Virus genome (UHGV): UHGV-0185026
Length of the DNA stretch: 26,209 nt
DNA from: a virus
Reading direction: 5' to 3' (one strand)
The notes under the pieces are model-generated. The model saw nothing but the letters and a program-made list of their open reading frames with translations, was not told the origin of the DNA and did not search any database. Below, in pieces: positions 5,839-20,117 of this stretch. The translations under genes were made by a program, and so were the position numbers. The stretch's first letter is position 1, and the number at the start of each line of letters is the position of its first letter.

Positions 5839-6034
5839 AGTCCTCCCGCGAGATCTGCCCGTCGCGCAGAAGCTGGTAGGCTTTGTGTTTGTAGTACCAG
5901 TTGATAGCCAGCATCAGCACACCGATCATCAGGCCGCCCAGCGTTGAGGCATCCTTGATGGACAAATCGCCCAGCCAGGCCAGCACGACGGCGATGCAAT
6001 ACGTGATAAAGGCGCTGATTCGCTCAAGCGTCAT
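5819..6034 (-). CDS. Y: Holin
   Basis: 71-aa protein with two hydrophobic helices and a charged C-terminus, immediately upstream of the endolysin and overlapping its start. Confidence 0.7.
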   Translation of the reverse strand: MTLERISAFITYCIAVVLAWLGDLSIKDASTLGGLMIGVLMLAINWYYKHKAYQLLRDGQISREDYESINR

Positions 6035-6037
6035 AAT

Positions 6038-6241
6038 TCAGTCCCATAGCTGGACGGTCTGCACGGTGGTGGTTGTCGGAATGTCCGGCAGCTCCACCTG
6101 CAGCCCGTGAGGTAAAAAGGGGCCGTATTCGGCAAGCCCCGGATTTGCCTTCAGTACCTGCTCCGTGACACCCTGCGTGCGCCCGTAATGACGCCAGCAA
6201 AGCGCGTCCACCGTGTCATACTGATGCGCACGCACTTTCAT
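6038..6241 (-). CDS. X: Tail protein X (LysM-like)
   Basis: 67-aa ORF MKVRAHQYDTVDALCWRHYGRTQGVTEQVLKANPGLAEYGPFLPHGLQVELPDI..., matching the P2 gpX pattern. Confidence 0.85.
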   Translation of the reverse strand: MKVRAHQYDTVDALCWRHYGRTQGVTEQVLKANPGLAEYGPFLPHGLQVELPDIPTTTTVQTVQLWD

Positions 6242-6705
6242 CAGATAAGCTCCACTGTGCAGTGCGGCGCATCCTGCACCCGACTGATGGCCCAGCGGGC
6301 GTCACGCCACAAATCACCGCTGGATTCCGCCAGTTCCTCGCCCCGCTTCACACCGGATGCCGTGGCGTCATAGTCCTGGTATCGTTCGTTGAGCATGGCG
6401 CGTGCCCAGCAGTAAACCGCGTTGAAATAGTGCTGAATGCGCTCACTTTTGCCGTCCAGCTGTTCCGCCGGAACCTCAGCCAGCGACACATATCCCAGCA
6501 TCTGCTGACGTCTACGAAACTCATACAGCTCTGCGTTGACCTCCGAAATTGCCGACAGGGCAACCTGCTTTAAACGCGGCTGCGTCACCGTGCCGTCAGT
6601 GCGCATCACGCTGCGAAACTCCGACAGGTCCACATCAGGCCAGAACGGCGTATTTCTGATGATTTCCGCCTGTTCCGGTGCCTGTTCTGGCGCAACAAAC
6701 TTCAT
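6241..6705 (-). CDS. L: Head completion/stabilisation protein gpL
   Basis: ORF 6241..6768; start placed at the internal Met (MKFVAPEQ...), which is preceded by an AGGAGA ribosome-binding site. Confidence 0.85.
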   Translation of the reverse strand: MKFVAPEQAPEQAEIIRNTPFWPDVDLSEFRSVMRTDGTVTQPRLKQVALSAISEVNAELYEFRRRQQMLGYVSLAEVPAEQLDGKSERIQHYFNAVYCWARAMLNERYQDYDATASGVKRGEELAESSGDLWRDARWAISRVQDAPHCTVELI

Positions 6706-6800
6706 GCTGCTTTCTCCTGAAATAGAGGGCGGTGGACGGGATTTTGATGTGGCTGTGCCTTTCGCCACCCCGTGCCGCCCGTGCGCGGGGGCACGTTCTG

Positions 6801-7451
6801 TCAGCGGCTGTCATTGCGCAGTCTGCGCTCCAGCTGCTGTTTGTCTTTTTTCACGCCACAGCGGGGATCGAGCTGTAACGCATGGTTGAGATGGTTAAGG
6901 GCAGAAGCCGGATTGCTTTCACTCAGGACAGCGCCAATCGCTTTATGCAGACGCGCCCGTGACTGGTCCGGCATATCCAGACCGTCTGTCAGCTCCAGCG
7001 TCTGCAACAACAGATCGGCATCAAAGCCGGTGGCGGCAAGCATTGCGCTCTGCGCCGCGTCTGCCATTTCCTCTGCCAGCACGGTCTGCACATTGCGGTT
7101 ACCCAGCGGCATCACCCAGCCATGACGCAGGGCATGACGCCCGATCTCCAGCGCCCCGGCATAATCTCCGGCATCAATGCGCCACAGCATCACGTACATC
7201 AGCACGTCATCCTGCTGTGCGCCTCCGGCAGTCAGGACACCCTCTGCCCAGGCGGCGTACTTCGGCAGCAGCTCCACCTTGATTTCCGCTTTTTTGACCG
7301 TGGACTGAACGCCCTTGAGACGGCGGCGGTCTTCCGCCAGTTGCAGCAGCATCAGGTCATAGCCCGACGCGTGGCGAACACTGCCGCCCTCGCGGGCGGC
7401 CTGTTCAGCCTGAACGCGCAGGCGATGCTGCCGTGCGGGACTCAGGCTCAT
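6801..7451 (-). CDS. M: Terminase small (endonuclease) subunit gpM
   Basis: 216-aa ORF downstream of capsid gene N, in the P2 M position. Confidence 0.85.
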   Translation of the reverse strand: MSLSPARQHRLRVQAEQAAREGGSVRHASGYDLMLLQLAEDRRRLKGVQSTVKKAEIKVELLPKYAAWAEGVLTAGGAQQDDVLMYVMLWRIDAGDYAGALEIGRHALRHGWVMPLGNRNVQTVLAEEMADAAQSAMLAATGFDADLLLQTLELTDGLDMPDQSRARLHKAIGAVLSESNPASALNHLNHALQLDPRCGVKKDKQQLERRLRNDSR

Positions 7452-7454
7452 GGT

Positions 7455-8513
7455 TTATGCTCCGGCTTCTGCGGCGGCGGCGCTGAAGTCGCCAATCTGG
7501 ATGTTTTCCACCAGTGCTGCGCAGCGGTAGTCCTCAACCACATAGGCTTCGTTAACGGATTCAAAGTTTTCAATCCGGTCACGTTTCGGGTTGTCGATAA
7601 CCGAACGGCGGCGGGTGTCCTCCTGCCAGTAAATGGACAGGTTATCCAGACGGGTGATCAGCAGCGCATTCGGCGGGAAGAACGGCGCACGCACGGCCTG
7701 CAGACCACCCATGCGTTTCTGACTGATGATCATATCGGCAGCCAGTTTTTCACTGTTTTCCTGCTCTTTGTTGACCAGCGGGAAATACTTGTCAGACAGC
7801 AGCTCACGACCGCAAATCACCACCAGATCGTCATCGTCCTGGTAGACCACGTCGATAAGCTCATTGACCGCATCCATCACCACGGCGTCCAGGTTGGCAT
7901 ATTCGCCACCTTTCCCGACTTTCACCGCACCCGGTATGGTTTCACCGCCCGTGGTGGTGCTGCCCATGACGTGATCCGGTGCATCCTCACGGATTTTCTG
8001 CAGCCAGCCTTTGTTCACATCCTGCAGCAGCGGGTTTTCGCTACGGTTAGAGGTTTTCGCACGCTTCACTCCGTTAAAGCCAATCATGATGCGGTCCAGT
8101 GCCTGACGTTTCACGATGGCGTTACGGATACGCACCTGGAAATCCTGAAACTTCGCCCACAGGTCCAGCTTCGCGTAGGTCAGCACCGTGTCAAAGTTGG
8201 TCTGTTCGCATTTGTATTCCACATCGACCATCAGCGTCGGATCGACAGGTTCACGCTCTTTCGCGGTGGTGTCAGTGGTTCCGGCAATGGTGCTGCCAAC
8301 ACCCAGCCCCAGCAGCTGACCGGACTGCTCAGTCACTGGCGTGACGTTAATCAGCGTCAGGAAAGCGGCGGACTGCTGGATCTGGTCTTCCAGCGTCTGC
8401 TGCACAGACGGCTCTACAGTGAACTTGCTGGACAGTTCTTCAACTGCCACACCGTTCAGACGTGCCAGTTGCTGCAGGTAAGCGTTAAAAGCAAAGCGGG
8501 TATTCTTCTTCAT
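7455..8513 (-). CDS. N: Major capsid protein gpN
   Basis: 352-aa ORF MKKNTRFAFNAYLQQLARLNGV..., with the size and position of the P2 N capsid protein. Confidence 0.9.
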   Translation of the reverse strand: MKKNTRFAFNAYLQQLARLNGVAVEELSSKFTVEPSVQQTLEDQIQQSAAFLTLINVTPVTEQSGQLLGLGVGSTIAGTTDTTAKEREPVDPTLMVDVEYKCEQTNFDTVLTYAKLDLWAKFQDFQVRIRNAIVKRQALDRIMIGFNGVKRAKTSNRSENPLLQDVNKGWLQKIREDAPDHVMGSTTTGGETIPGAVKVGKGGEYANLDAVVMDAVNELIDVVYQDDDDLVVICGRELLSDKYFPLVNKEQENSEKLAADMIISQKRMGGLQAVRAPFFPPNALLITRLDNLSIYWQEDTRRRSVIDNPKRDRIENFESVNEAYVVEDYRCAALVENIQIGDFSAAAAEAGA

Positions 8514-8529
8514 CAGGTTTTGTGCTCCA

Positions 8530-9363
8530 TCAGCAATTGGTCAGAGTGTCAGCGGGGGCGTTACCGCCTGTTGCACGCTGGCGGTAGTCCTGGCGGCTGT
8601 CTTCATGACTCAGCTTATTCACCAGTTCGTTAAAGGCGGTTTGCTGCTCCTGCAGAGCAGTCTCCAGCTCAGACAGGCGTTCTTCCTGCTCAGACAGGGA
8701 TTTTTCGGTGCGTGCGCTCAGGTTCTGCTGCTCAGTGGCGACCAGCTCTACGGCCTTATGCACATCAGAGAACCGGGCGTCATCGGACTGCTCTTTTTTG
8801 GTAAACAGCGCCGTGACACGGGCAAACAGGGACGGCTTGTCCTCCTGGATTTCTTCCAGTTCGATCACCGTTTCCTCTGCAGCGGTAAAAAGATTGGCGG
8901 GATTCTGCTTGCGGTTTGCCAGCGGGTTATGGGTTGCACTGGCGCTGAATGTCAGCATTTCCGTACCCAGACTGGCGGGATCATCAGTGGCAGCCAGGCC
9001 GACCAGGTAGGCTTTACCCGTATCAGCGAACTTCGGGCTGACTTCCATAGAGGTGAATAATTTCTGGCCTTTTTTCACCAGTTCCACCAGGGACTCCGTT
9101 GGCTCAACGTCGGCATACAGCGCCATCTTGCCTGCCAGCGGACCTTCCGTGATTTCTTCAGCAAACAGCGCCGTCACCTTGCCGTAGCGGTTAAAGGTGC
9201 TGTCCGGCAGATAAGACTTGATGTGCTCAAGGTTAATCAGCGCGGTATACACCGCCGGGTTGTAGCTGGCTGCCATCTGTTCCAGCCATTCACGCTGGAT
9301 TTCGCGTCCGTCGGTGGTGGCACCTTCCACCCCGATGCGAAAACGCTTTGCTTTCACTGTCAT
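8530..9363 (-). CDS. O: Capsid scaffolding protein gpO
   Basis: 277-aa ORF MTVKAKRFRIGVEGATTDGREI..., first gene of the rightward late operon, divergent from P. Confidence 0.85.
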   Translation of the reverse strand: MTVKAKRFRIGVEGATTDGREIQREWLEQMAASYNPAVYTALINLEHIKSYLPDSTFNRYGKVTALFAEEITEGPLAGKMALYADVEPTESLVELVKKGQKLFTSMEVSPKFADTGKAYLVGLAATDDPASLGTEMLTFSASATHNPLANRKQNPANLFTAAEETVIELEEIQEDKPSLFARVTALFTKKEQSDDARFSDVHKAVELVATEQQNLSARTEKSLSEQEERLSELETALQEQQTAFNELVNKLSHEDSRQDYRQRATGGNAPADTLTNC

Positions 9364-9441
9364 GAGCCGTGCTCCGTTAGAAAAAACTTACTGGAGCCTT
9401 ATGGTTGCGGTGATGGGGGCAGTGAAACAATGCGCGGTATT

Positions 9442-9459
9442 TGTACCGACAACCACACA
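9442..9459. promoter_or_regulatory. Candidate Ogr/B-type late-activator site (TGT-N12-ACA) in the divergent O/P late promoter region
   Basis: TGTACCGACAACCACACA in the 142-bp intergenic region between the divergent O and P genes. Coordinates approximate. Confidence 0.4.
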
Positions 9460-9505
9460 AACCGCAGGCGGGGAAAGCCTTCATTCAAGGCTGTAGGTTT
9501 GTGCC

Positions 9506-11272
9506 ATGAACACCACACTGACACCCGCAGATCTCGATCCCCGTCGGCAGGCCATGCTGCTGTACTTTCAGGGATACCGCGTAGCCCGCATTGCTGAAAT
9601 GCTGGGCGAGAAAGTTGCAACCGTTCACAGCTGGAAAAAACGCGACAAGTGGGGTGACTATGGGCCGCTGGATCAGATGCAGCTCACCACCGCCGCACGC
9701 TACTGCCAGCTCATTATGAAGGAGCACAAAGAAGGGAAAGATTTCAAAGAGATTGACCTGCTGGCGCGCCAGTCTGAGCGCCACGCGCGGATCGGCAAGT
9801 TTAACAATGGCGGCAACGAAGCCGACTTAAACCCTAACGTCGCCAACCGCAACAAAGGCCCACGCCGTCAGCCGGAAAAGAATGTTTTCACCGATGAACA
9901 GATTGAGAAGCTGGAAGAAATCTTCCATTCCTCCATGTTCAACTACCAGCGCCACTGGTGGGAAGCCGGAAAAACCAACCGCATCCGCAACCTGCTGAAG
10001 TCACGCCAGATCGGCGCGACCTTCTATTTTGCCCGTGAAGCCCTGATTGACGCCCTGCTGACCGGACGTAACCAGATTTTCCTTTCTGCCAGTAAGGCAC
10101 AGGCCCACGTCTTCAAACAGTACATCATCGACTTTGCCAAAGAAGTAGAGGTGGAGCTGAAAGGCGATCCGATGGTGCTTCCCAACGGGGCCACACTGTA
10201 TTTCCTCGGCACCAATGCCCGCACGGCCCAGAGTTATCACGGCAACCTGTATCTGGATGAATATTTCTGGATACCAAAATTCCAGGAGCTGCGCAAAGTG
10301 GCTTCCGGTATGGCTATTCACAAAAAATGGCGACAAACCTATTTTTCCACGCCATCCAGTCTGACACACAGTGCTTATCCGTTCTGGTCCGGTGCGCTGT
10401 TCAACCGTGGGCGCAACAAAGCCGATAAGGTGGACATCGACCTGTCCCACAGCAATCTGGCCCCCGGCCTGCTGTGCGCAGACGGGCAATACCGCCAGAT
10501 AGTCACCGTGGAAGATGCGGTGCGCGGCGGCTGTAACCTGTTCGACCTCGACCAGCTACGCATGGAGTACAGCCCGGACGAATACCAGAACCTGCTGATG
10601 TGCGAGTTTGTGGACGATCTCGCGTCCGTGTTTCCGCTCAGCGAGCTGCAGGCGTGCATGGTGGACAGTTGGGAAGTCTGGACCGACTTTCATGCACTGG
10701 CGCTGCGCCCGTTTGGCTGGCGCGAAGTGTGGATCGGTTATGACCCGGCAAAAGGCACGCAAAACGGCGACAGCGCCGGATGCGTGGTGGTGGCACCGCC
10801 AGCCGTGCCGGGTGGTAAGTTCCGCATTCTTGAGCGTCACCAGTGGCGCGGGATGGACTTCCGCGCCCAGGCTGACGCCATCAAAAAACTGACCGAACAG
10901 TACAACGTGACCTATATCGGTATCGACTCAACCGGCGTTGGTCACGGGGTTTACGAGAACGTGAAAGCGTTTTTTCCTGCCGTCCGGGAGTTTGTCTACA
11001 ACCCCAACGTTAAAAACGCCCTGGTACTCAAGGCCTACGACATTATCAGCCACCGCCGTCTGGAGTTTGACGCCGGACACACCGACATAGCGCAGTCCTT
11101 TATGGCAATACGTCGCGCCACCACCGCCAGTGGCAACCGCCCGACCTATGAAGCCAGCCGCAGCGAAGAAGCCAGCCACGCCGATCTGGCCTGGGCAACG
11201 ATGCACGCACTGTTTAACGAACCGCTGCAGGGCGAATCCGCCAATACCAGCAATATTGTGGAGATTTTTTGA
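9506..11272 (+). CDS. P: Terminase large (ATPase) subunit gpP
   Basis: 588-aa ORF MNTTLTPADLDPRRQAMLLYFQGYRVARIAEMLG...; position and size match P2 gpP. Confidence 0.9.
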   Translation: MNTTLTPADLDPRRQAMLLYFQGYRVARIAEMLGEKVATVHSWKKRDKWGDYGPLDQMQLTTAARYCQLIMKEHKEGKDFKEIDLLARQSERHARIGKFNNGGNEADLNPNVANRNKGPRRQPEKNVFTDEQIEKLEEIFHSSMFNYQRHWWEAGKTNRIRNLLKSRQIGATFYFAREALIDALLTGRNQIFLSASKAQAHVFKQYIIDFAKEVEVELKGDPMVLPNGATLYFLGTNARTAQSYHGNLYLDEYFWIPKFQELRKVASGMAIHKKWRQTYFSTPSSLTHSAYPFWSGALFNRGRNKADKVDIDLSHSNLAPGLLCADGQYRQIVTVEDAVRGGCNLFDLDQLRMEYSPDEYQNLLMCEFVDDLASVFPLSELQACMVDSWEVWTDFHALALRPFGWREVWIGYDPAKGTQNGDSAGCVVVAPPAVPGGKFRILERHQWRGMDFRAQADAIKKLTEQYNVTYIGIDSTGVGHGVYENVKAFFPAVREFVYNPNVKNALVLKAYDIISHRRLEFDAGHTDIAQSFMAIRRATTASGNRPTYEASRSEEASHADLAWATMHALFNEPLQGESANTSNIVEIF

Positions 11273-12297
11273 TGGGAAAGAGTAAGAAGAACCGCACTGC
11301 GGCGACGAATCAGATCCAGCATAAAAACCAGACTTCAGCCGAAGCATTCAGCTTCGGTGATCCCGTTCCAGTACTTGACCGCCGCGAACTGCTGGACTAT
11401 GTGGAATGTGTTCAGACAGATCGCTGGTATGAGCCTCCCGTCAGCTTTGACGGACTGGCGCGCACCTTCCGCGCTGCCGTGCATCATAGTTCCCCGATTG
11501 CAGTAAAGTGCAACATTCTGACCAGTACCTATATCCCTCATCCGCTGCTCAGCCAACAGGCTTTTTCGCGTTTTGTGCAGGACTATCTGGTATTTGGTAA
11601 CGCCTACCTGGAGAAACGCACGAACCGATTCGGTGAAGTTATCGCCCTTGAGCCTGCGCTGGCAAAATACACCCGACGCGGGTTAGACCTGGATACCTAC
11701 TGGTTTGTGCAATACGGTATGACAACCCAGCCGTATCAGTTCACGAAAGGCAGCATTTTTCATCTGATGGAACCGGACATCAACCAGGAGATCTACGGCC
11801 TGCCCGGCTATCTTTCTGCCATTCCATCCGCCCTGCTCAACGAATCCGCCACGCTGTTCCGCCGTAAGTATTACATCAACGGTAGTCATGCAGGCTTCAT
11901 CATGTACATGACCGACGCCGCGCAGAATCAGGAGGATGTGAACAACCTCCGCAACGCGATGAAAAGCGCCAAAGGTCCAGGCAACTTCCGCAATCTGTTT
12001 ATGTACTCGCCTAACGGCAAAAAGGACGGACTTCAGATTATCCCGTTGTCAGAAGTCGCAGCGAAAGATGAATTTCTGAACATCAAGAACGTGAGCCGGG
12101 ACGACATGATGGCTGCACACCGCGTACCGCCTCAGATGATGGGAATTTTGCCGAATAATGTTGGGGGGTTTGGGGATGTGGAGAAGGCTAGTAAGGTATT
12201 TATGCGCAATGAATTGGTGCCCATGCAGAAAAGATTTGATCAATTAAACGACTGGCTTGAAATAGAAATAATTAGATTTAGACCATACGTACTTTGA
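11272..12297 (+). CDS. Q: Portal protein gpQ
   Basis: 342-aa ORF; the ATG overlaps the P stop (TGATG). P2 gpQ-like position downstream of P. Confidence 0.9.
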   Translation: MGKSKKNRTAATNQIQHKNQTSAEAFSFGDPVPVLDRRELLDYVECVQTDRWYEPPVSFDGLARTFRAAVHHSSPIAVKCNILTSTYIPHPLLSQQAFSRFVQDYLVFGNAYLEKRTNRFGEVIALEPALAKYTRRGLDLDTYWFVQYGMTTQPYQFTKGSIFHLMEPDINQEIYGLPGYLSAIPSALLNESATLFRRKYYINGSHAGFIMYMTDAAQNQEDVNNLRNAMKSAKGPGNFRNLFMYSPNGKKDGLQIIPLSEVAAKDEFLNIKNVSRDDMMAAHRVPPQMMGILPNNVGGFGDVEKASKVFMRNELVPMQKRFDQLNDWLEIEIIRFRPYVL

Positions 12298-12326
12298 ACA
12301 AAAACAATAAAGTTCAGACAGTAATT

Positions 12327-12359
12327 TATATGTGGCTACAAAAATAGCAGCCACATATA
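12327..12359. terminator. Perfect 11-bp stem hairpin between convergent Q and the SMC-like ATPase gene (possible bidirectional terminator)
   Basis: TATATGTGGCT...AGCCACATATA inverted repeat lying between the Q stop (12297) and the ATPase stop (12363). No strong U-tract, so rho-independent function is uncertain. Confidence 0.3.
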
Positions 12360-12362
12360 CAA

Positions 12363-14267
12363 TTACTCAATTATTTTCAATGAATAATTATCTGGCGAAT
12401 AATACTCACCAACAATATATTCACTCTCACTGTATTTGGGATTTATTTCAGATGTTGCAAATATCAACTGATAATCATGTTCATAACGTGAGCACTCATC
12501 AATTATTATTTCCTGTAAATTGTGACTCCGTTCTTTTTCCATTCCACCATCGTCGATCCCATCTAACATCATAAATCTTGGAAGTCGCATTGAGTGGTTC
12601 TCTATACTTGCTGAAAGTAGTGCCAAATGGAATATATGCCTTAATACTACAGCTGAACTTTCAGAAAAGTTCTTACTACCATTCACATAAACGCTATTAT
12701 CAGTAAAACTAAACTCCACACTTTCAGGAGACATAAACTCTTTTTGCAAAGGCAAATCTTCTTGTAAAAGCTCTTGTGCTATTGAGCTCACTGAAGCATA
12801 AATTTTATCTTTAAGAACTTCCTCTTTTTCTTCATAAAGTTCAATAAGATCATCAAGTCTATTTTTTTCCGCCTGAAGTTCATCGCGACGCTCTTGAAGT
12901 TCATTAATAACAACAATAAGCTTCTTATCTTCATAAGCTCTTTTTATTTCTTCATCAAGCCGTCCAATTTCCCTATATATTTTACCTACAGCTAACTCTT
13001 GCGGTGAAGACCAATAGTGTGACTCTTTGAAATAATCCTGTTCAAGCCTTTTTAATTCACTCTCAGCTAAAGGAACATCTCGCTTTAATCTTACCAACTC
13101 TTCTTTTCTTCTATCCATTAATTGAAGAGATTCTTTGATTTGAAGAGTTAATTCATTTTTCATTCTTAATAACTGATTTTCAGCTTTATCATCTAATTGT
13201 TCCACTTTACATAGATGACAAACATGATCATTATGAGCCTTATCTATTTTGGAAAGACAACTAGGGCAAAAATCAAAATTCATACTATCAAATATAGCAC
13301 GCGTTTCTCCAGACTGTTCTAAGTTTTTTAGCCGCTCATTTAATTCTGATATAAACATATCAGAATCTGAAATTTCAAAATCCAAAGATTGGATTTTATC
13401 TTTTAGGGAAGATAATTTCCTTTTAGCTTCATTGAGTTCCTCCCTGATAGTACCCATTCGTTTTTCAGAATCAGCCCCTTCTTCATTAGTTATAATAGCT
13501 CTATTTGTTAGTTTTACATTCTCAATAGCTCTCAATTTATTTAGATGCTTTATTTTCTCATCAATACCTTGTAAATCTGGAGCCTGTCCAGATCTACCTA
13601 ATACAGTAAAGATACTTTTTAATTCAGTAACTTTCTTTGTTAGTTCGGTCTCAACATCTCTTAAAGAAAGTTGTGCATTGTACAACTCATCATTATAAAC
13701 ACCACATAAGTATCCACCTACCGTCTCACGGGTAAGAGCATTATCAAATCTGTCAAATCGAAAAATTGGACTATGTAACGACGGCTGATCTGCATACAAG
13801 ACACGTAAAATCTGATGCAATGTCAAATTAGAAGAACCAGCACCTTGTGCCAAGGGCATTGATAATGCATTAAAAATAGCTTGGGTGAAGCTAATTTTAC
13901 TCTCAGTTCTCTTGAATGGGTATAATTCCCATTCGTGTTCCCCAGCATTCAAAGCCTTATCCATCGCTCCCCAATAAATATAAAGAGGTCGCATTTGCTC
14001 AATAGATATCTCTCGTTTAAAGCATGCTTTCTCATTATTGAGAAGCACTTCAACGATTGTTCTAGTGCATTTCAAAGCCTGTGGTTTCCACCTGATATTT
14101 TCAGCTCCCAATGAAAATGCCAGCATATCCATTATTGTAGTTTTACCAGAACTATTTCGCCCACGAATAATGTTAACACCTTTGTGGAATTCACAATCAA
14201 ATGCACGATGTCCGTGTTGAAAAACTGTTAATCTGGTTACAATAAGAGTAGGCTTAATAAGTGTCAT
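12363..14267 (-). CDS. SMC/Rad50-like ABC ATPase with long coiled coil and central Cys4 motif (Lamassu LmuB / ABC-3C-type ATPase candidate)
   Basis: 634 aa. N-terminal Walker A (GRNSSGKTT), C-terminal Walker B/D-loop-like FMMLDGIDDGG, and about 300 residues of heptad-rich E/K/L sequence with CPSC-x13-CHLC near its middle. AT-rich composition. Confidence 0.65.
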   Translation of the reverse strand: MTLIKPTLIVTRLTVFQHGHRAFDCEFHKGVNIIRGRNSSGKTTIMDMLAFSLGAENIRWKPQALKCTRTIVEVLLNNEKACFKREISIEQMRPLYIYWGAMDKALNAGEHEWELYPFKRTESKISFTQAIFNALSMPLAQGAGSSNLTLHQILRVLYADQPSLHSPIFRFDRFDNALTRETVGGYLCGVYNDELYNAQLSLRDVETELTKKVTELKSIFTVLGRSGQAPDLQGIDEKIKHLNKLRAIENVKLTNRAIITNEEGADSEKRMGTIREELNEAKRKLSSLKDKIQSLDFEISDSDMFISELNERLKNLEQSGETRAIFDSMNFDFCPSCLSKIDKAHNDHVCHLCKVEQLDDKAENQLLRMKNELTLQIKESLQLMDRRKEELVRLKRDVPLAESELKRLEQDYFKESHYWSSPQELAVGKIYREIGRLDEEIKRAYEDKKLIVVINELQERRDELQAEKNRLDDLIELYEEKEEVLKDKIYASVSSIAQELLQEDLPLQKEFMSPESVEFSFTDNSVYVNGSKNFSESSAVVLRHIFHLALLSASIENHSMRLPRFMMLDGIDDGGMEKERSHNLQEIIIDECSRYEHDYQLIFATSEINPKYSESEYIVGEYYSPDNYSLKIIE

Positions 14268-14754
14268 ATCTATACTCCATAAGTTTAGTTCTAGCCTTCA
14301 ATCCATCAGGTCCAGTCAGATGAAATTTAGCCATCTTTTGTGTAATGAAAGATGAAAACGGTTCTTTGCGCTCTAAAAAAACGCCCATTTCTAAGGCTAG
14401 GTTCAGTGGTAATTGTTTATTTGTTCTTGAGACAAAACCATTGCTGAAATCATCAGAATCAATATAACCAGTCGCAAGCATACATTTTAGTGCTGCATCC
14501 TGTATTTGACGCATTTCCTTGAAAATAATCCTTGGACTCAATGGATCATGATATTCATTATGATGTAGTTTTGCTGTTTTTTTAATTTTAATAAATTCTC
14601 TCGGCATTTTCACTTCACTTAATAACGCAGGAAATAAAATGTAAAAATCCAATATTTTAAGCTTATCAATCTCAAGCCGATTTGTATTTTCCATAATTGC
14701 CATCATTCTAAATAGACAATGATAGGCATCATATGCTGGATGATAAACTAACAT
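14254..14754 (-). CDS. Hypothetical alpha-helical protein, translationally coupled partner of the SMC-like ATPase
   Basis: 166-aa ORF; its start overlaps the stop of the upstream gene (ATGTTAG) and its stop overlaps the ATPase start by 14 nt. No recognisable catalytic motif. Confidence 0.6.
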   Translation of the reverse strand: MLVYHPAYDAYHCLFRMMAIMENTNRLEIDKLKILDFYILFPALLSEVKMPREFIKIKKTAKLHHNEYHDPLSPRIIFKEMRQIQDAALKCMLATGYIDSDDFSNGFVSRTNKQLPLNLALEMGVFLERKEPFSSFITQKMAKFHLTGPDGLKARTKLMEYRYDTY

Positions 14755-15359
14755 TTATCCCACCTTATATAACAATTTCCGCCTAAAAAATACAACAGTC
14801 CCAAAAGATCCTTTTCGGATAAGTTTAACAAATTATCGCCCAACATTTCACTAATATTTTCTAATACCAATGAAATTTTTTCATCAACAATTACTCGGTC
14901 CTCATCCTTCTGAATAAGAGGTATAATTTTGAGCATAAAATCAGCATGAATTTTATCAAGAATAAACGCATATATTTCTTGTGCGGTTTTGGAAGATTGG
15001 CACTTCATTATCGCCTTGAGGGCTTGCTCTTTAAGAGCAGTTGCAAAGTAAATTAATTCAGTTCTATCACTATCAGTTAGCTTTGTAGCTAAATCTCTTA
15101 TATCTGGATTGGTATCCGAGGCTAAATAGTGCTTTAACTTATCACAAAAATCCTGCCCCCCCATAGTTCCATCTTCTTGAGAGAACTTTTGGTACAAACG
15201 CTCTAAAGTTCGATTACTACTACGAACTATATTGGTAATGTGGTTTGTTTGACTCCCTCCAACAATACTCCCATTTCTTACTCTATTACCTGATTGCTCC
15301 TGTTTACTAAACACACCAATCACTCCCTTAGTGAGAATTAGTCTGATCTCTACCGACAA
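14748..15359 (-). CDS. Hypothetical protein, second gene of the SMC-like ATPase operon; true start probably the in-frame GTG near 15314
   Basis: ORF of 203 codons from a TTG. An AAGGGAG ribosome-binding site overlaps the stop of the upstream small gene, about 8 nt before an in-frame GTG. The N-terminus carries an NGSIVGxxQTN motif. Confidence 0.55.
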   Translation of the reverse strand: MSVEIRLILTKGVIGVFSKQEQSGNRVRNGSIVGGSQTNHITNIVRSSNRTLERLYQKFSQEDGTMGGQDFCDKLKHYLASDTNPDIRDLATKLTDSDRTELIYFATALKEQALKAIMKCQSSKTAQEIYAFILDKIHADFMLKIIPLIQKDEDRVIVDEKISLVLENISEMLGDNLLNLSEKDLLGLLYFLGGNCYIRWDKC

Positions 15360-15510
15360 TGCTTCCGTTTGTCACTGTATTTCCATTTTGAATGGGAGAA
15401 CTTTGGTTCATACAAATTTGCTTTACTTTGTAATTATACACATTGAAAGTAATAGCCCAACTGATACCCGCCCCTGCCAAAAAACTAATGATTTCGCTTA
15501 AGTATTCCAT
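15328..15510 (-). CDS. Small single-pass membrane protein (about 60 aa), first gene of the operon
   Basis: ATG preceded by a GGAGG ribosome-binding site; hydrophobic helix IISFLAGAGISWAITFNV. The C-terminal NGSIVGRDQTN motif is repeated in the next gene. Confidence 0.45.
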   Translation of the reverse strand: MEYLSEIISFLAGAGISWAITFNVYNYKVKQICMNQSSPIQNGNTVTNGSIVGRDQTNSH

Positions 15511-15597: not shown

Positions 15598-15616
15598 TCG
15601 TATCCCCGCCACGCCT
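15598..15616 (-). other. Candidate cos (cohesive end) site
   Basis: The minus strand reads GGCGTGGCGGGGATACGAG followed by CGCGCG. As recalled, P2/186 cohesive ends are GGCGAGGCGGGGAAAGCAC and GGCGTGGCGGGGAAAGCAT; the first 13 nt match the 186-type end. Orientation points toward Q, as in P2. Confidence 0.3.
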
Positions 15617-15886: not shown

Positions 15887-16468
15887 ATGAAAGTCAACAT
15901 AAAACAGATTGTTGGAAATTGGGAATTAGGTCTTGCGATGGATAAACACAGCATCCGCAGCATTCCCATTGGTTACGATGAGTGGGGACATATGCGGTTT
16001 GAGACGGAGCGTACTGAGGTAGGCGAATCTCTTTTCCAGCTTAAATACCGTGACGATTGGTCACAAGTTAAGCCTTTAGCCCAATGCCTAGCAGAGCATG
16101 CCTTTCCTCATTTCAGCAATGTCGGGTTTATCGTTCCAATGGCTGCATCTAATCAGCGTGCACGCCAGCCAGTGACCGAAATAGCTCAGGAACTAGCCAA
16201 ACTAGTTGGCAAACCATGCTTCGATGACCTCTTGTTGAAAGCCCCCGGCGGGGCATCGCTAAAGAACCTGAATACAAAAGAAGAGAAAATCACGGCGCTG
16301 GGTAATTCGTTCTCTGTTAATGACAGTATTGAGAATAATGGCAACTGGAATGTCCTTATCATTGACGACCTCTACCATACAGGCGCATCTATGGAGGCTG
16401 CTTGTGCTGTGCTAAACGATTATACTAAGGTTAGAAGCATTTATGTTGCAGCTTTGACTTGGAGATAG
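15887..16468 (+). CDS. Phosphoribosyltransferase (PRTase)-domain protein, ShosT-like candidate
   Basis: 193 aa with the PRPP-binding signature NVLIIDDLYHTGASMEAA near the C-terminus. First gene of a two-gene plus-strand module in the cargo island. Confidence 0.7.
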   Translation: MKVNIKQIVGNWELGLAMDKHSIRSIPIGYDEWGHMRFETERTEVGESLFQLKYRDDWSQVKPLAQCLAEHAFPHFSNVGFIVPMAASNQRARQPVTEIAQELAKLVGKPCFDDLLLKAPGGASLKNLNTKEEKITALGNSFSVNDSIENNGNWNVLIIDDLYHTGASMEAACAVLNDYTKVRSIYVAALTWR

Positions 16469-16470
16469 TG

Positions 16471-17028
16471 ATGACTACGGTATTTGTTGCTGGTTCAATA
16501 ACCATCAAAAACCTTGACACACTCATCGTGGATCGTCTGAAAAAAATTGTTAACTCGCGTTTTCGTATTGTAGTTGGTGATGCCAATGGTGTTGATTCAT
16601 CTGTTCAACGCGTATTGCTAGAACTTGGATGTGAAAAAGCCACAGTATTCAGTAGCTCAGAAAAACCGCGCAATAATCTTGGCTCATGGCCTGTACATGT
16701 AGTAAGTACTAGCCATGCAGCCGGCACTCGCGCGTTTTTCACTGCGAAAGATCTCAAAATGGCAGAAGAAGCCGATTATGGATTAATGGTTTGGGATACG
16801 AAGAGCACGGGTACTCTGAGTAACGTGATTGAGCTTCTTAAACGTAAAAAATACTCTGTCGTTTTTGTTAATAAATACAAAAAGTTCTTTATTATCAAAT
16901 CTCCAGAGCACCTTGACGCTTTGATTAACTGCATGTCACCAGCCTCTTTGGAAAAAGCTGATGAAAAGATCAGATTGCGCGAAAAAATCAACCAACTAAA
17001 AAACGAGCAAATCCAGATGTTTATGTGA
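16471..17028 (+). CDS. DprA/Smf-like (SLOG-type Rossmann) protein, ShosA-like candidate
   Basis: ATG two nucleotides after the PRTase stop, with a GGAGA ribosome-binding site. N-terminal VFVAGS...IVVGDANGVD pattern resembles the DprA Rossmann-fold motifs. Confidence 0.55.
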   Translation: MTTVFVAGSITIKNLDTLIVDRLKKIVNSRFRIVVGDANGVDSSVQRVLLELGCEKATVFSSSEKPRNNLGSWPVHVVSTSHAAGTRAFFTAKDLKMAEEADYGLMVWDTKSTGTLSNVIELLKRKKYSVVFVNKYKKFFIIKSPEHLDALINCMSPASLEKADEKIRLREKINQLKNEQIQMFM

Positions 17029-17702: not shown

Positions 17703-20117
17703 TTAATACAGGTTTCGCCACTTATCATCTTCCTGCAAACGCTGGTTCCGATAGAAGATACGCAGGCCTGCTCCTGACGGAATACTGCCTCCGCGAAGCA
17801 GTAAATCGACCTCTTTCTCGCTGCCATCAAATCCCCTGGACTTCAGTTCATACACGAGCTGCAGTCGCTGATGGTCTGTAATTCGCTGTTTGTAGTCTTT
17901 ACGCCGTTTCGGTTTCACCAGGCGTAACCTTGCTGCCAGTTCCCGGCGCTCTTTTTTGCTCATACTGTGCAGGTAATCGTGCAACTCCTTGTCATCCATG
18001 CGGGTGATATCCGTTCTGGTATCTCCATCAGCTGATTTGTCTTTCCCTTGTTGGTACAAATTTTCAGCAAGGGGACAGTTATTGCCACGAGTCCAAGGGG
18101 CGCAAGCGCCCTGGTCGGCTGCCGCCTCCTGAACGTCAACGGCTTTACGAACCATTTTCCACTTCACTGCATGAGTGCAGATCTTGCCCTCTGCAATGGG
18201 TGACCAGATGCCATAAATACGAATGCCGTGATCGCCATAGGCGGTCGGCTCTTCGTTGATTTCATAAGCGGTTCTGATGAGGTGATATTTACGGGGAACC
18301 AGTACGCCGCCCTGCTTCATGATGTAGGTGGCAAAACAACCAGCATCAGCAGCAGCCAGAATGGCATCAAGACGCGGGTTATCCAGTACCGGCGCACCTG
18401 CTTTTTTGTCACCCTGTTGCCTTGCCGCCTGACCAGCCAGCAAGCGAAGTTCACGGTAAGCCTGACGCCCCGGAATACCAAAGAAGCGGAATTGCTGAAC
18501 ACGATGCAGAGACGCCCAGGCATTCACGTATTCAGCGTTATCACGCAGAGATTTACCCGTTTCCTTGCTGATCTCGCCAGCCAGACCACGACCGTCAATG
18601 TTCTTACTGATATATTTCGCGATGTAGCTTGTCGGCGTTCCTTTGCGCGGGTTAATCAACTCAGACTTAAAGCGCGGCCCAGTGTTATTGCCCAGCTCCT
18701 CGCGGTCTTCACGGATGGCAAACTTACGCAGTAATGCAGTGATGGCACGGCGGTCTTTTTTGCGCATGAAACACAACAGGTGCCAGTGAACTGTGCCATC
18801 ATGATGCGGCTCAGCCACCCGCACGCCATACCAGCGCAACCCGGCTTTGTGCATCGCCTTACGAAATGCAGCAAACATGCCGACCAGATAATCGCTGCTT
18901 TGTCTTACCGTCGCGTTTGTCCAGGTCGGGTTTGGTCTGCCGTTATTTAGCGTGGAATGGAAACGCGACGGACAGGTGATAGTGTAGAAAACGGCGCAGT
19001 CACCGCGCATTTCCGCGATAAGCTCCAGACCTTTAACACAGGCCATCATCTCATTGCGGCGATGCGCAGGGTTGCTGCTGCTGGCGTTTACCACATCCTC
19101 CATGTCCAGCGTGTCGCCGTCTTCGTTCACCAGTTCATGAGAACGGAAAAACTCCAGCGACTTACGGCGCTGCTCACGTTTATGCATCACGGCTTCATAG
19201 CTGACATAAGGAGATGCTTTTTTGCTGACCAGGCAAACAGCGCGCAACTGCTCTTCCCGCCATTCGCAACGCATCTTCCATAATTTCCGATACCACCAGT
19301 CGGCGCACAACATACGCGCCAGCGAACCCGGAATGAGTTCATAGGGCACGGGTTTACGGCGGTTTCTTTTCCGACGAAGTTTCTCAAACGCAGGCGGGAT
19401 AACATCCAGACGCAGGGTTTCCGCAGCCACCTTTTCCCATGTCTTGCGGATTTCTTCTGGCTTAACGTCATCGGTGGCGTACAAATCACCACAAGCGGCC
19501 TCAAGACACATGCTCATATGCGCTGCTACCAGGGTGGACAGGCGTTTCACCTGATCCTGGCTCATTTCAGGCAGGATCAGCAGCCCCTCCAGTCCTTGAT
19601 GGCTTGCCATAAAACGGAAAGAAACAGATAGCTGACTGTCACGTACACAATCCAGTCGCTCCAGACATGGCTTAATCGTCTCACGCAAATAGCGGGAATA
19701 AGCCTTTGGCCTGCCCAGGCTGCTGAAGTATTCGATACGTTGCATCAGCGGCTTGCTGATATGAGAAGGCTGGGCGCTGACATCTGCCAGAATGACCATG
19801 TCCGGGTTAAAACGCTGCTGCTCATGCGCCAGCTTTGCCCGGCTAATGAGCTTATCCTGCTCCATTTCGCGCTGGACAGGATCACGGGATTCATTAAAGA
19901 AATAACGCTCCCAGACCTGCTCACTCAGTGCCTCGCGGCGCAGTTGTTCCTGCTCGTTATCGGCAGCGTACAGAGTGATCAGGTTTGAAAGTGCAGACTC
20001 CGGCGCAACTTCCGCCGGATCCAGATAAGGGTTAATGGCCTTTTTCGGGCCGTTCCATGAAAATGCTGCGGCAGCCTCGTTAAAGCCGCTAGAGTTGCTC
20101 ATATCGTCATGACTCAT
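17703..20117 (-). CDS. A: Replication initiation endonuclease gpA (rolling-circle initiator)
   Basis: 804-aa ORF containing [12 protein letters not shown] and HHDGTVHWH-type motifs characteristic of P2 gpA-family initiators. Confidence 0.9.

Follow-up and report, generated by a model that had tools for sequence, protein, structure and literature searches.

A conserved four-cysteine motif at the coiled-coil tip of a prophage-encoded Lamassu LmuB ATPase, a probable intra-chain zinc ribbon

Results

The ATPase gene and its neighbours

The DNA analysed here, referred to as the window, is a 26,209-nucleotide stretch of the UHGV virus genome UHGV-0185026. Its minus strand carries a gene for a 634-aa ATPase, with MC5 and CTD9 genes directly upstream on the same strand and in overlapping reading frames (lmuC overlaps the start of lmuB by 14 nt), preceded by a small ORF.

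12363 to 14267, minus strand: lmuB, a 634-aa SMC/Rad50-like ABC ATPase with a coiled-coil insertion (ORF, PADLOC, Pfam, Foldseek, PHROGs)
14254 to 14754, minus strand: lmuC, ABC-3C middle component 5 (MC5), 166 aa (Pfam MC5 2e-57, PADLOC LmuC 8.7e-4, phrog_13252)
14748 to 15314, minus strand: lmuA-like gene with a GTG start, 188 aa, CTD9 in the C-terminal half (Pfam CTD9 5.2e-30, RefSeq (PGAP), phrog_13193)
15328 to 15510, minus strand: small ORF of 60 aa, ATG at 15510 with GGAGG upstream, a candidate effector (kept upstream of the CTD9 gene)

The 634-aa protein is LmuB, which serves a short Lamassu (ABC-3C) anti-phage system as its Rad50/SbcC-like sensor; one family goes under the three names ABC-3C, DdmABC and Lamassu. 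The identification follows from the PADLOC LmuB matches, the fold matches to solved LmuB proteins, the adjoining MC5 and CTD9 genes and the RefSeq designation "ABC-three component system". The PADLOC LmuB models PDLC03862 (4.5e-43), PDLC03859 (2.8e-42) and PDLC03863 (6.9e-38) match over nearly the full length, and the Pfam matches are AAA_23/SMC_N/AAA_15. In the AF2 full-length monomer model (mean pLDDT 81.5) the ABC head is split by an antiparallel coiled coil, and when this model was compared with the PDB by Foldseek the top matches were LmuB chains (9hqu_A at 4.8e-19, then 9uxh_F, 9hqx_B, 9nyg_B and 9ux7_A), with Rad50, SMC and JetC ranking below them. The protein therefore falls in the same family as the LmuB of Lamassu/DdmABC, represented by Salmonella LmuACB (PDB 9hqu/9hqx), with an identity to the solved LmuB chains of only 12-15% (Foldseek); unlike Foldseek, a PDB sequence search with the single protein and with a 65-sequence profile found no LmuB chain. 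In PHROGs the lmuB product is phrog_1637 (1.8e-204), and the LmuB, LmuC and LmuA-like proteins all belong there to families of unknown function. The first-pass annotation had called the product simply an ATPase, which missed its identity as Lamassu LmuB and the fact that the hook, two-CxxC variants included, is already in the literature.

The nucleotide-binding motifs are recognizable at both ends of the protein.

14136 to 14162, minus strand: Walker A, G36-RNSSGKT-T44 (GRNSSGKTT), from the sequence, with G41/K42 invariant in both alignments
12549 to 12578, minus strand: deviant Walker B/D-loop, RFMMLD569-G-I-D-D573, from the alignments, with D569 invariant

The C-terminal part contains a signature-like FSESS and the Walker B FMMLD, in which S537 and D569, respectively, are invariant. 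At the catalytic-Glu position that follows D569 this protein has Gly, and most relatives have Asn. The Walker B of short Lamassu LmuBs is given as a deviant hhhhD[Q/S/T/E] in a recent survey (PMC12663957), and the Gly/Asn found here lies outside that Q/S/T/E set; it fits the slow-ATPase, switch-like behaviour published for LmuB.

The order of the lmuB, MC5 and CTD9 genes is repeated in Burkholderia, Agrobacterium and Elusimicrobia. CTD9 is paired with an LmuB of this clade in 26/26 loci examined, and MC5 is present as a Pfam call or a readable ORF among the loci listed in full; this constant company would suit an interface that has co-adapted. No Pfam match was obtained for the 88 residues that precede CTD9, nor any in NCBIfam or PADLOC for the whole 188-203-aa LmuA-like protein. 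[quoted passage not shown] For the conserved His/Cys at the N-terminus of MC5, metal binding was weighed and rejected, the Cys not being conserved in Elusimicrobia or Agrobacterium.

A locus 99.8% identical to this one is present in four E. coli chromosomes (4/5,426 complete E. coli genomes), where RefSeq reads [quoted passage not shown]. It is part of a P2-like prophage, with the portal gene on one side and the replication endonuclease on the other, and a ShosT-like gene adjoins the cassette in this cargo region. The cassette has a GC content of 30-38%, against 52-60% in the phage core, a low value typical of acquired cargo, and no match to the cassette came up when the phage collection was searched by megablast. 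The P2-like cargo site, the ShosT-like neighbour and the low GC content support an anti-phage role of the cassette indirectly.

The four cysteines lie in the apex loop of the coiled coil

The first-pass annotation had pointed to CPSC-x13-CHLC in the coiled-coil region of the ATPase. All four cysteines are there, within the interval of 13200-13300 that it gave, with a spacer of 12 rather than 13 residues. The stretch of the ORF that bears them is FCPSCLSKIDKAHNDHVCHLCK, and the cysteine codons are at 13266-13268 (C334), 13257-13259 (C337), 13218-13220 (C350) and 13209-13211 (C353).

13287 to 13691, minus strand: ascending arm, residues 193-327, with helices 193-223, 233-252 and 267-327 (AF2)
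13194 to 13286, minus strand: apex loop, residues 328-358, between two long helices (DSSP of AF2 models)
13209 to 13268, minus strand: Cys4 motif, C334-P-S-C337-x12-C350-H-L-C353 (ORF translation; invariant in both alignments)
13257 to 13268, minus strand: first knuckle, CPSC, consensus phi-x-F-x-[FY]-C-P-x-C-[LFY]-x-x-phi (counts over 145 representatives; AF2 beta-bridges 333, 340)
13209 to 13220, minus strand: second knuckle, CHLC, consensus C-x-L-C-[KG] (Leu in 130/145; AF2 beta-bridges 349, 356)
12762 to 13193, minus strand: descending arm, residues 359-502, with helices 359-416 and 422-502 (AF2)

The arms are alike in length in the full-length AF2 model, the ascending one, from about residue 190, being about 143 and the descending one, to about residue 503, about 149 residues long. 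By DSSP, residues 267-327 and 359-416 are helical and residues 328-358 are not, and this is the sole long loop between long antiparallel helices. Since the Cys4 motif sits in this loop, it is at the coiled-coil apex, as had been proposed from the sequence. The comparison with the Rad50 zinc hook that was drawn at the same time is also borne out: the motif of this Rad50/SMC-like ABC ATPase occupies the region that is called the zinc hook in LmuB and Rad50, and, as in the Rad50/SbcC hook, a CxxC (CPSC, 334-337) is found in the inter-helix loop at the apex. An antisense ORF overlying the motif (13249 to 13698, plus strand, 149 aa) was set aside; it lies wholly within the strongly conserved gene and is of low complexity by eye.

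Conservation of the four cysteines

Both CxxC pairs are kept in 264/266 full-length homologues checked, down to 27% identity. These comprise 120/120 close homologues among the matches listed (53-100% identity) and 144/146 full-length proteins from the best 150 of 340 cluster representatives (27-52% identity), the representatives having been collected in an exhaustive HMMER scan at E <= 1e-30. The two exceptions have lost only the fourth Cys, their first CxxC and third Cys being spaced as in the others; the persistence of these three cysteines with unchanged spacing agrees with a single, shared metal site. The spacer between the CxxC pairs is 11-13 residues long in 254/264 proteins, and the family consensus reads phi-x-F-x-[FY]-C-P-x-C-[LFY]-x-x-phi-(6-8)-C-x-L-C-[KG]. 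An alignment of 54 sequences with a mean column identity of 40% has 24 invariant columns, which include C334, P335, C337, C350 and C353 and, among the others, G41/K42 of Walker A, S537 of the signature and D569 of Walker B. Judged by these alignments, conservation of the four cysteines equals that of the catalytic residues of the ATPase.

Could the cysteines have come together by chance and be without function? A single CxxC pair is common, arising in 10.9% of random placements of the protein's 9 Cys over 634 positions, and nothing else speaks for such clustering. The pattern CxxC-x5..25-CxxC is expected in 2.3e-4 of the placements, and the retention of Cys4 in 264 of the 266 homologues, which come from several phyla, refutes a chance origin, to which we give practically no weight.

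Structural predictions for the Cys4 loop

Conserved hydrophobic positions flank both knuckles, and a near-invariant Leu lies inside the second. In an AF2 prediction of residues 300-390 from a more diverse, 57-sequence alignment, isolated beta-bridges form at 333/340 and 349/356, which predicts two rubredoxin-type knuckles. When ten hook fragments of the family were compared with Pfam, sub-threshold zinc-ribbon matches spanned both knuckles (DZR_2 in four fragments, DZR in two, also Zn_ribbon_3 and Zn_Ribbon_TF). The Rad50_zn_hook profile of Pfam did not match the 634-aa protein and reached E 0.039, far below the cut-off, in one of the ten fragments. A Foldseek search with the apex fragment 300-390 returned nothing significant. 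The hook is the least confident region of the monomer models, with a pLDDT of 46-56 in the full-length protein and 63-73 in the fragment.

A small membrane peptide shares a motif with the LmuA-like protein

The small ORF lies 13 nt upstream of the lmuA-like gene. Its product has a hydrophobic, membrane-helix-like N-terminal segment and a C-terminal motif, QNGNTVTNGSIVGRDQTN, and the N-terminus of the LmuA-like protein has a G/N-rich motif, QSGNRVRNGSIVGGSQTN, that is matched by this tail. A small ORF of 51-69 aa precedes the CTD9 gene in 25/26 loci examined, and such loci were found in Enterobacteria, Pseudomonas, Burkholderia, Acinetobacter, Agrobacterium and Elusimicrobia. Aligning the tail motif with the head motif gives a score of 52 when both come from one locus, 35 when they come from different loci and 19.5 +/- 4.4 with shuffled tails, and when partners were permuted, 0/20,000 permutations reached the observed total score.

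Discussion

The Cys4 cluster is the already described LmuB zinc hook. In the PNAS 2025 survey, hook copies across the LmuB tree number none, one or two (PMC12663957), and the two-CxxC state is thus already catalogued. We found in the literature no structural or mutational study of a two-CxxC LmuB hook. The structurally studied LmuBs differ from the present one in having a single CxxC (Bacillus, 285-CQYC-288) or none (Vibrio). The Salmonella LmuB has a zinc hook, mutation of which abolishes defence, with the zinc density unresolved, and LmuC and the LmuA C-terminal domain adjoin the hook in the LmuACB structures (10.1101/2025.03.14.643221). The protein from the window shares with these LmuBs the placement of the hook at the end of a short coiled coil, away from the heads, and an operon with LmuC and an LmuA C-terminal domain. 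According to the same survey, the Vibrio LmuB dimerises and has no hook, and short LmuBs "may employ divergent dimerization strategies" (PMC12663957). The hookless Vibrio dimer and the variation between zero, one and two CxxC copies together mean that zinc-bridged dimerisation is dispensable in the LmuB family.

How, then, are four cysteines at one tip used? Probably, the two CxxC knuckles of each chain jointly hold one Zn2+ in a mini zinc ribbon. In the Rad50/SbcC hook (PF04423; PDB 1L8D, 5GOX) each chain has a single CxxC and the tetrahedral site is completed by a second chain, whereas here each chain brings four cysteines within a 31-residue loop, with both CxxC invariant in the alignments. 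Also unlike Rad50/SbcC, the coiled-coil arms are much shorter, and there is no gene for an Mre11/SbcD partner, the neighbours being MC5, CTD9 and the small membrane peptide. The presence of four ligands per chain, the flanking hydrophobic residues, the predicted knuckles and the recurrent, sub-threshold zinc-ribbon matches in Pfam favour a small folded module. We infer that the Cys4 module binds zinc, that it does so within one chain and that it has a docking role.

We favour this intramolecular ribbon over a reinforced Rad50 hook in which the CxxC motifs of one chain pair with those of the other (1-1' plus 2-2', or swapped 1-2'), so that two bridging zinc ions would be held per LmuB dimer and dimerisation would be the main role; such a double hook is possible, at a clearly lower probability. 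The canonical Rad50/SbcC hook is, after all, intermolecular, and 1l8d is among the non-significant Foldseek matches of the fragment (TM 0.45-0.58). In the literature each CxxC of an LmuB counts as one "zinc-hook copy" and is regarded as a putative module for dimerisation (PMC12663957). In the solved hook-bearing LmuB dimers the two hooks are closely juxtaposed, and the low pLDDT of the hook in the monomer models would be expected if the site formed only in the dimer. The first CxxC has the canonical CPxC form, but it is flanked by conserved, beta-strand-like hydrophobic residues, and the near-invariant, buried-type Leu in the second knuckle suggests one folded module. The spacer is held at the 11-13 residues typical of minimal zinc ribbons, the exceptions have lost the fourth Cys alone, and Vibrio LmuB dimers form without any hook, all of which argues against two bridging zinc ions.

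The ribbon might instead bind nucleic acid, with the tip contacting DNA or RNA as an additional sensing site remote from the heads, which we consider improbable. JGI gives two homologues (P0109 and P0120) the name "predicted nucleic acid-binding Zn-ribbon protein", but these names are automatic annotation, and the module has few conserved basic residues except one Lys after the second knuckle. For a nucleic-acid contact there is also a weak similarity of our protein to MSMEG_4306 (PDB 5Y05/5Y06), a coiled-coil hairpin with a C4 zinc ribbon; it is largely driven by the coiled coil. Proteins of the MSMEG_4306 family carry the ribbon after the second helix, at the hairpin base, and not between the helices, and unlike LmuB MSMEG_4306 is without an ATPase head. 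Engagement of DNA at the arm tip, raised as one option in the first-pass annotation, finds no support in the published Lamassu-DNA complexes, which hold DNA at the head end, at the LmuB heads and LmuC, and whose tip carries LmuC/LmuA; engagement of a partner, the other option, fits the LmuACB structures, in which the hook has LmuC and the C-terminal domain of LmuA beside it. Cys4 knuckle pairs are able to bind Fe or to serve as redox switches, and a rubredoxin-like Fe/Zn site whose oxidation or loss of metal opened the arms and triggered the system can therefore be imagined; the related SMC-like defence protein RloC is called "zinc-responsive" in the title of a paper. A switch of this kind is even less likely than a nucleic-acid contact, because neither the sequence nor the context gives any sign of redox chemistry and the published Lamassu trigger is DNA ends or replication intermediates.

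With an intra-chain ribbon as the preferred reading, the following sequence of events can be proposed. The ribbon, of about 30 residues and with a small core formed by F331/F333/L338/I341/L352, would cap the turn between the coiled-coil helices. By homology with the solved LmuACB complexes, two LmuB chains would run alongside each other and meet at their tips, and the rigid, metal-stapled Cys4 cap may help to juxtapose the two arms and offer a docking surface. In the resting state, LmuC (MC5) and the CTD9 domain would form a complex with the tip that sequesters the LmuA-like protein. Binding of DNA ends or replication intermediates at the ATPase heads would remodel the geometry of the arms, and the LmuA-like protein would then be released and oligomerise.

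The arrangement of the small peptide and the LmuA-like protein is reminiscent of the Bab/Agp (BASS11) Abi system from E. coli prophage hotspots (10.1101/2024.11.07.622273). There too, a small protein combines an N-terminal hydrophobic helix with a C-terminal G/N-rich motif, the motif recurs at the N-terminus of the adjoining sensor-side protein, and the genes occupy a prophage defence hotspot. Unlike in Bab/Agp, the partner here is a Lamassu CTD9 adaptor and not a TPR-PIN protein, and the small protein, at 51-69 aa, is without a Bell-like helical domain. The layout of tail and head motifs is that of amyloid-signalling pairs such as Bab/Agp, and an amyloid nature of the motifs is putative. The Bab/Agp preprint (10.1101/2024.11.07.622273) makes no mention of Lamassu, and the PNAS survey (PMC12663957) is silent on a membrane protein.

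A more speculative and, taken as a whole, rather unlikely scenario could be viewed as follows. The clade would have converted an ancestral inter-chain hook of the Rad50 type into an intra-chain Cys4 ribbon, which would no longer bridge the dimer and would act as a clade-specific docking knob for MC5/CTD9. In this Lamassu subtype, killing would be carried out not by an enzyme but by the 51-69-aa membrane peptide, triggered through the G/N-rich motif that it shares with the released LmuA-like adaptor, by an amyloid-like templating as in Bab/Agp or HET-S/NWD2.

The prophage's unnamed "AAA family ATPase" is now identified as the sensor of a Lamassu defence system, and its four-cysteine tip is a hallmark of a large LmuB clade (340 representatives at E <= 1e-30; the tip is kept in 264/266 full-length homologues checked). 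The choice between an intra-chain and a bridging role of the cysteines matters for our picture of dimerisation and effector retention in short SMC-like sensors. The small peptide and the motif it shares with the LmuA-like protein matter more than the Cys4 finding itself, which changes little.

Acquisition and genomic setting of the Lamassu cassette

Across the defence cassette (window 12300-15500) GC is 30-38%, whereas the phage genes on either side (9000-12000 and 18000-20000) have 52-60%. Among 5,426 complete E. coli genomes just 4 carry the cassette, and no record in the phage collection matched it at megablast level. Together, this GC contrast and sparse distribution indicate that the cassette was acquired recently by horizontal transfer. 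In other bacteria, this four-gene cassette is placed inside defence islands, where its neighbours are GmrSD-like, AAA_15/AAA_21 ATPase, Fic, UvrD-like helicase, HNH and type I restriction genes (6017-7507 and 7548-8663 in homologous loci L005/L006; 1050-3272 and 8297-9469 in L002; coordinates of each locus).

What else does the prophage carry beside the cassette?

15601-15615, (-): GGCGTGGCGGGGATA, cos-like sequence
15887-16468, (+): phosphoribosyltransferase-like protein, 193 aa (PADLOC, NCBIfam)
16459-17028, (+): weakly DprA-like protein, 189 aa (Pfam, phrog_289)

The 193-aa protein matches PADLOC ShosT (1.3e-8) and PsyrT (1.5e-7) and NCBIfam ComF (3.6e-5), and its gene overlaps that of the 189-aa protein, which is weakly similar to DprA (Pfam DNA_processg_A, 0.21; phrog_289, 3.9e-10); the pair is therefore Shosta-like, and is a candidate second defence pair within the Lamassu-bearing cargo region. 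The otherwise near-identical prophage of strain PK8568 is without this pair and has a different 141-aa gene at that site. GGCGTGGCGGGGATA occurs once in the window, with 0.01 occurrences expected by chance, and resembles the beginning of the cohesive-end sequence of P2/186. Should this be the cos site, the Lamassu cassette would be bounded by the portal gene and cos, with the Shosta-like pair beyond cos on the other side.

The LmuB ATPase and a candidate effector

12549-12578, (-): LmuB Walker B, residues 564-573, reading FMMLD-G-IDD
14748-15314, (-): enzyme-less CTD9 (LmuA-like) gene, N-terminus bearing the small-ORF motif
15328-15510, (-): small ORF, membrane-helix-like N-terminus and G/N-rich C-terminal motif

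The catalytic glutamate position of the LmuB Walker B is glycine here and asparagine in most relatives, and neither residue belongs to the published short-Lamassu set, D[Q/S/T/E] (PMC12663957). These replacements suggest that LmuB would bind ATP and hydrolyze it very slowly.

Directly upstream of the CTD9 gene, the small ORF is conserved at 51-69 aa (with the CTD9 gene, L002 3757-4520, L006 2790-3508 and L007 2739-3502; upstream of the match in L011-L032). Its C-terminus and the LmuA-like N-terminus have a G/N-rich motif in common (QNGNTVTNGSIVGRDQTN and QSGNRVRNGSIVGGSQTN, respectively, in the E. coli pair). The best motif-pair matches are same-locus pairs, scoring 52 within a locus, 35 between loci and 19.5 when shuffled (0 of 20,000 permutations of the partners gave as high a total). 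This layout is reminiscent of amyloid-signalling effector/sensor pairs such as Bab/Agp (10.1101/2024.11.07.622273). A 2025 PNAS survey described a Lamassu clade in which the LmuA effector domain has seemingly been lost (PMC12663957), and the small ORF may be the missing effector of that clade.
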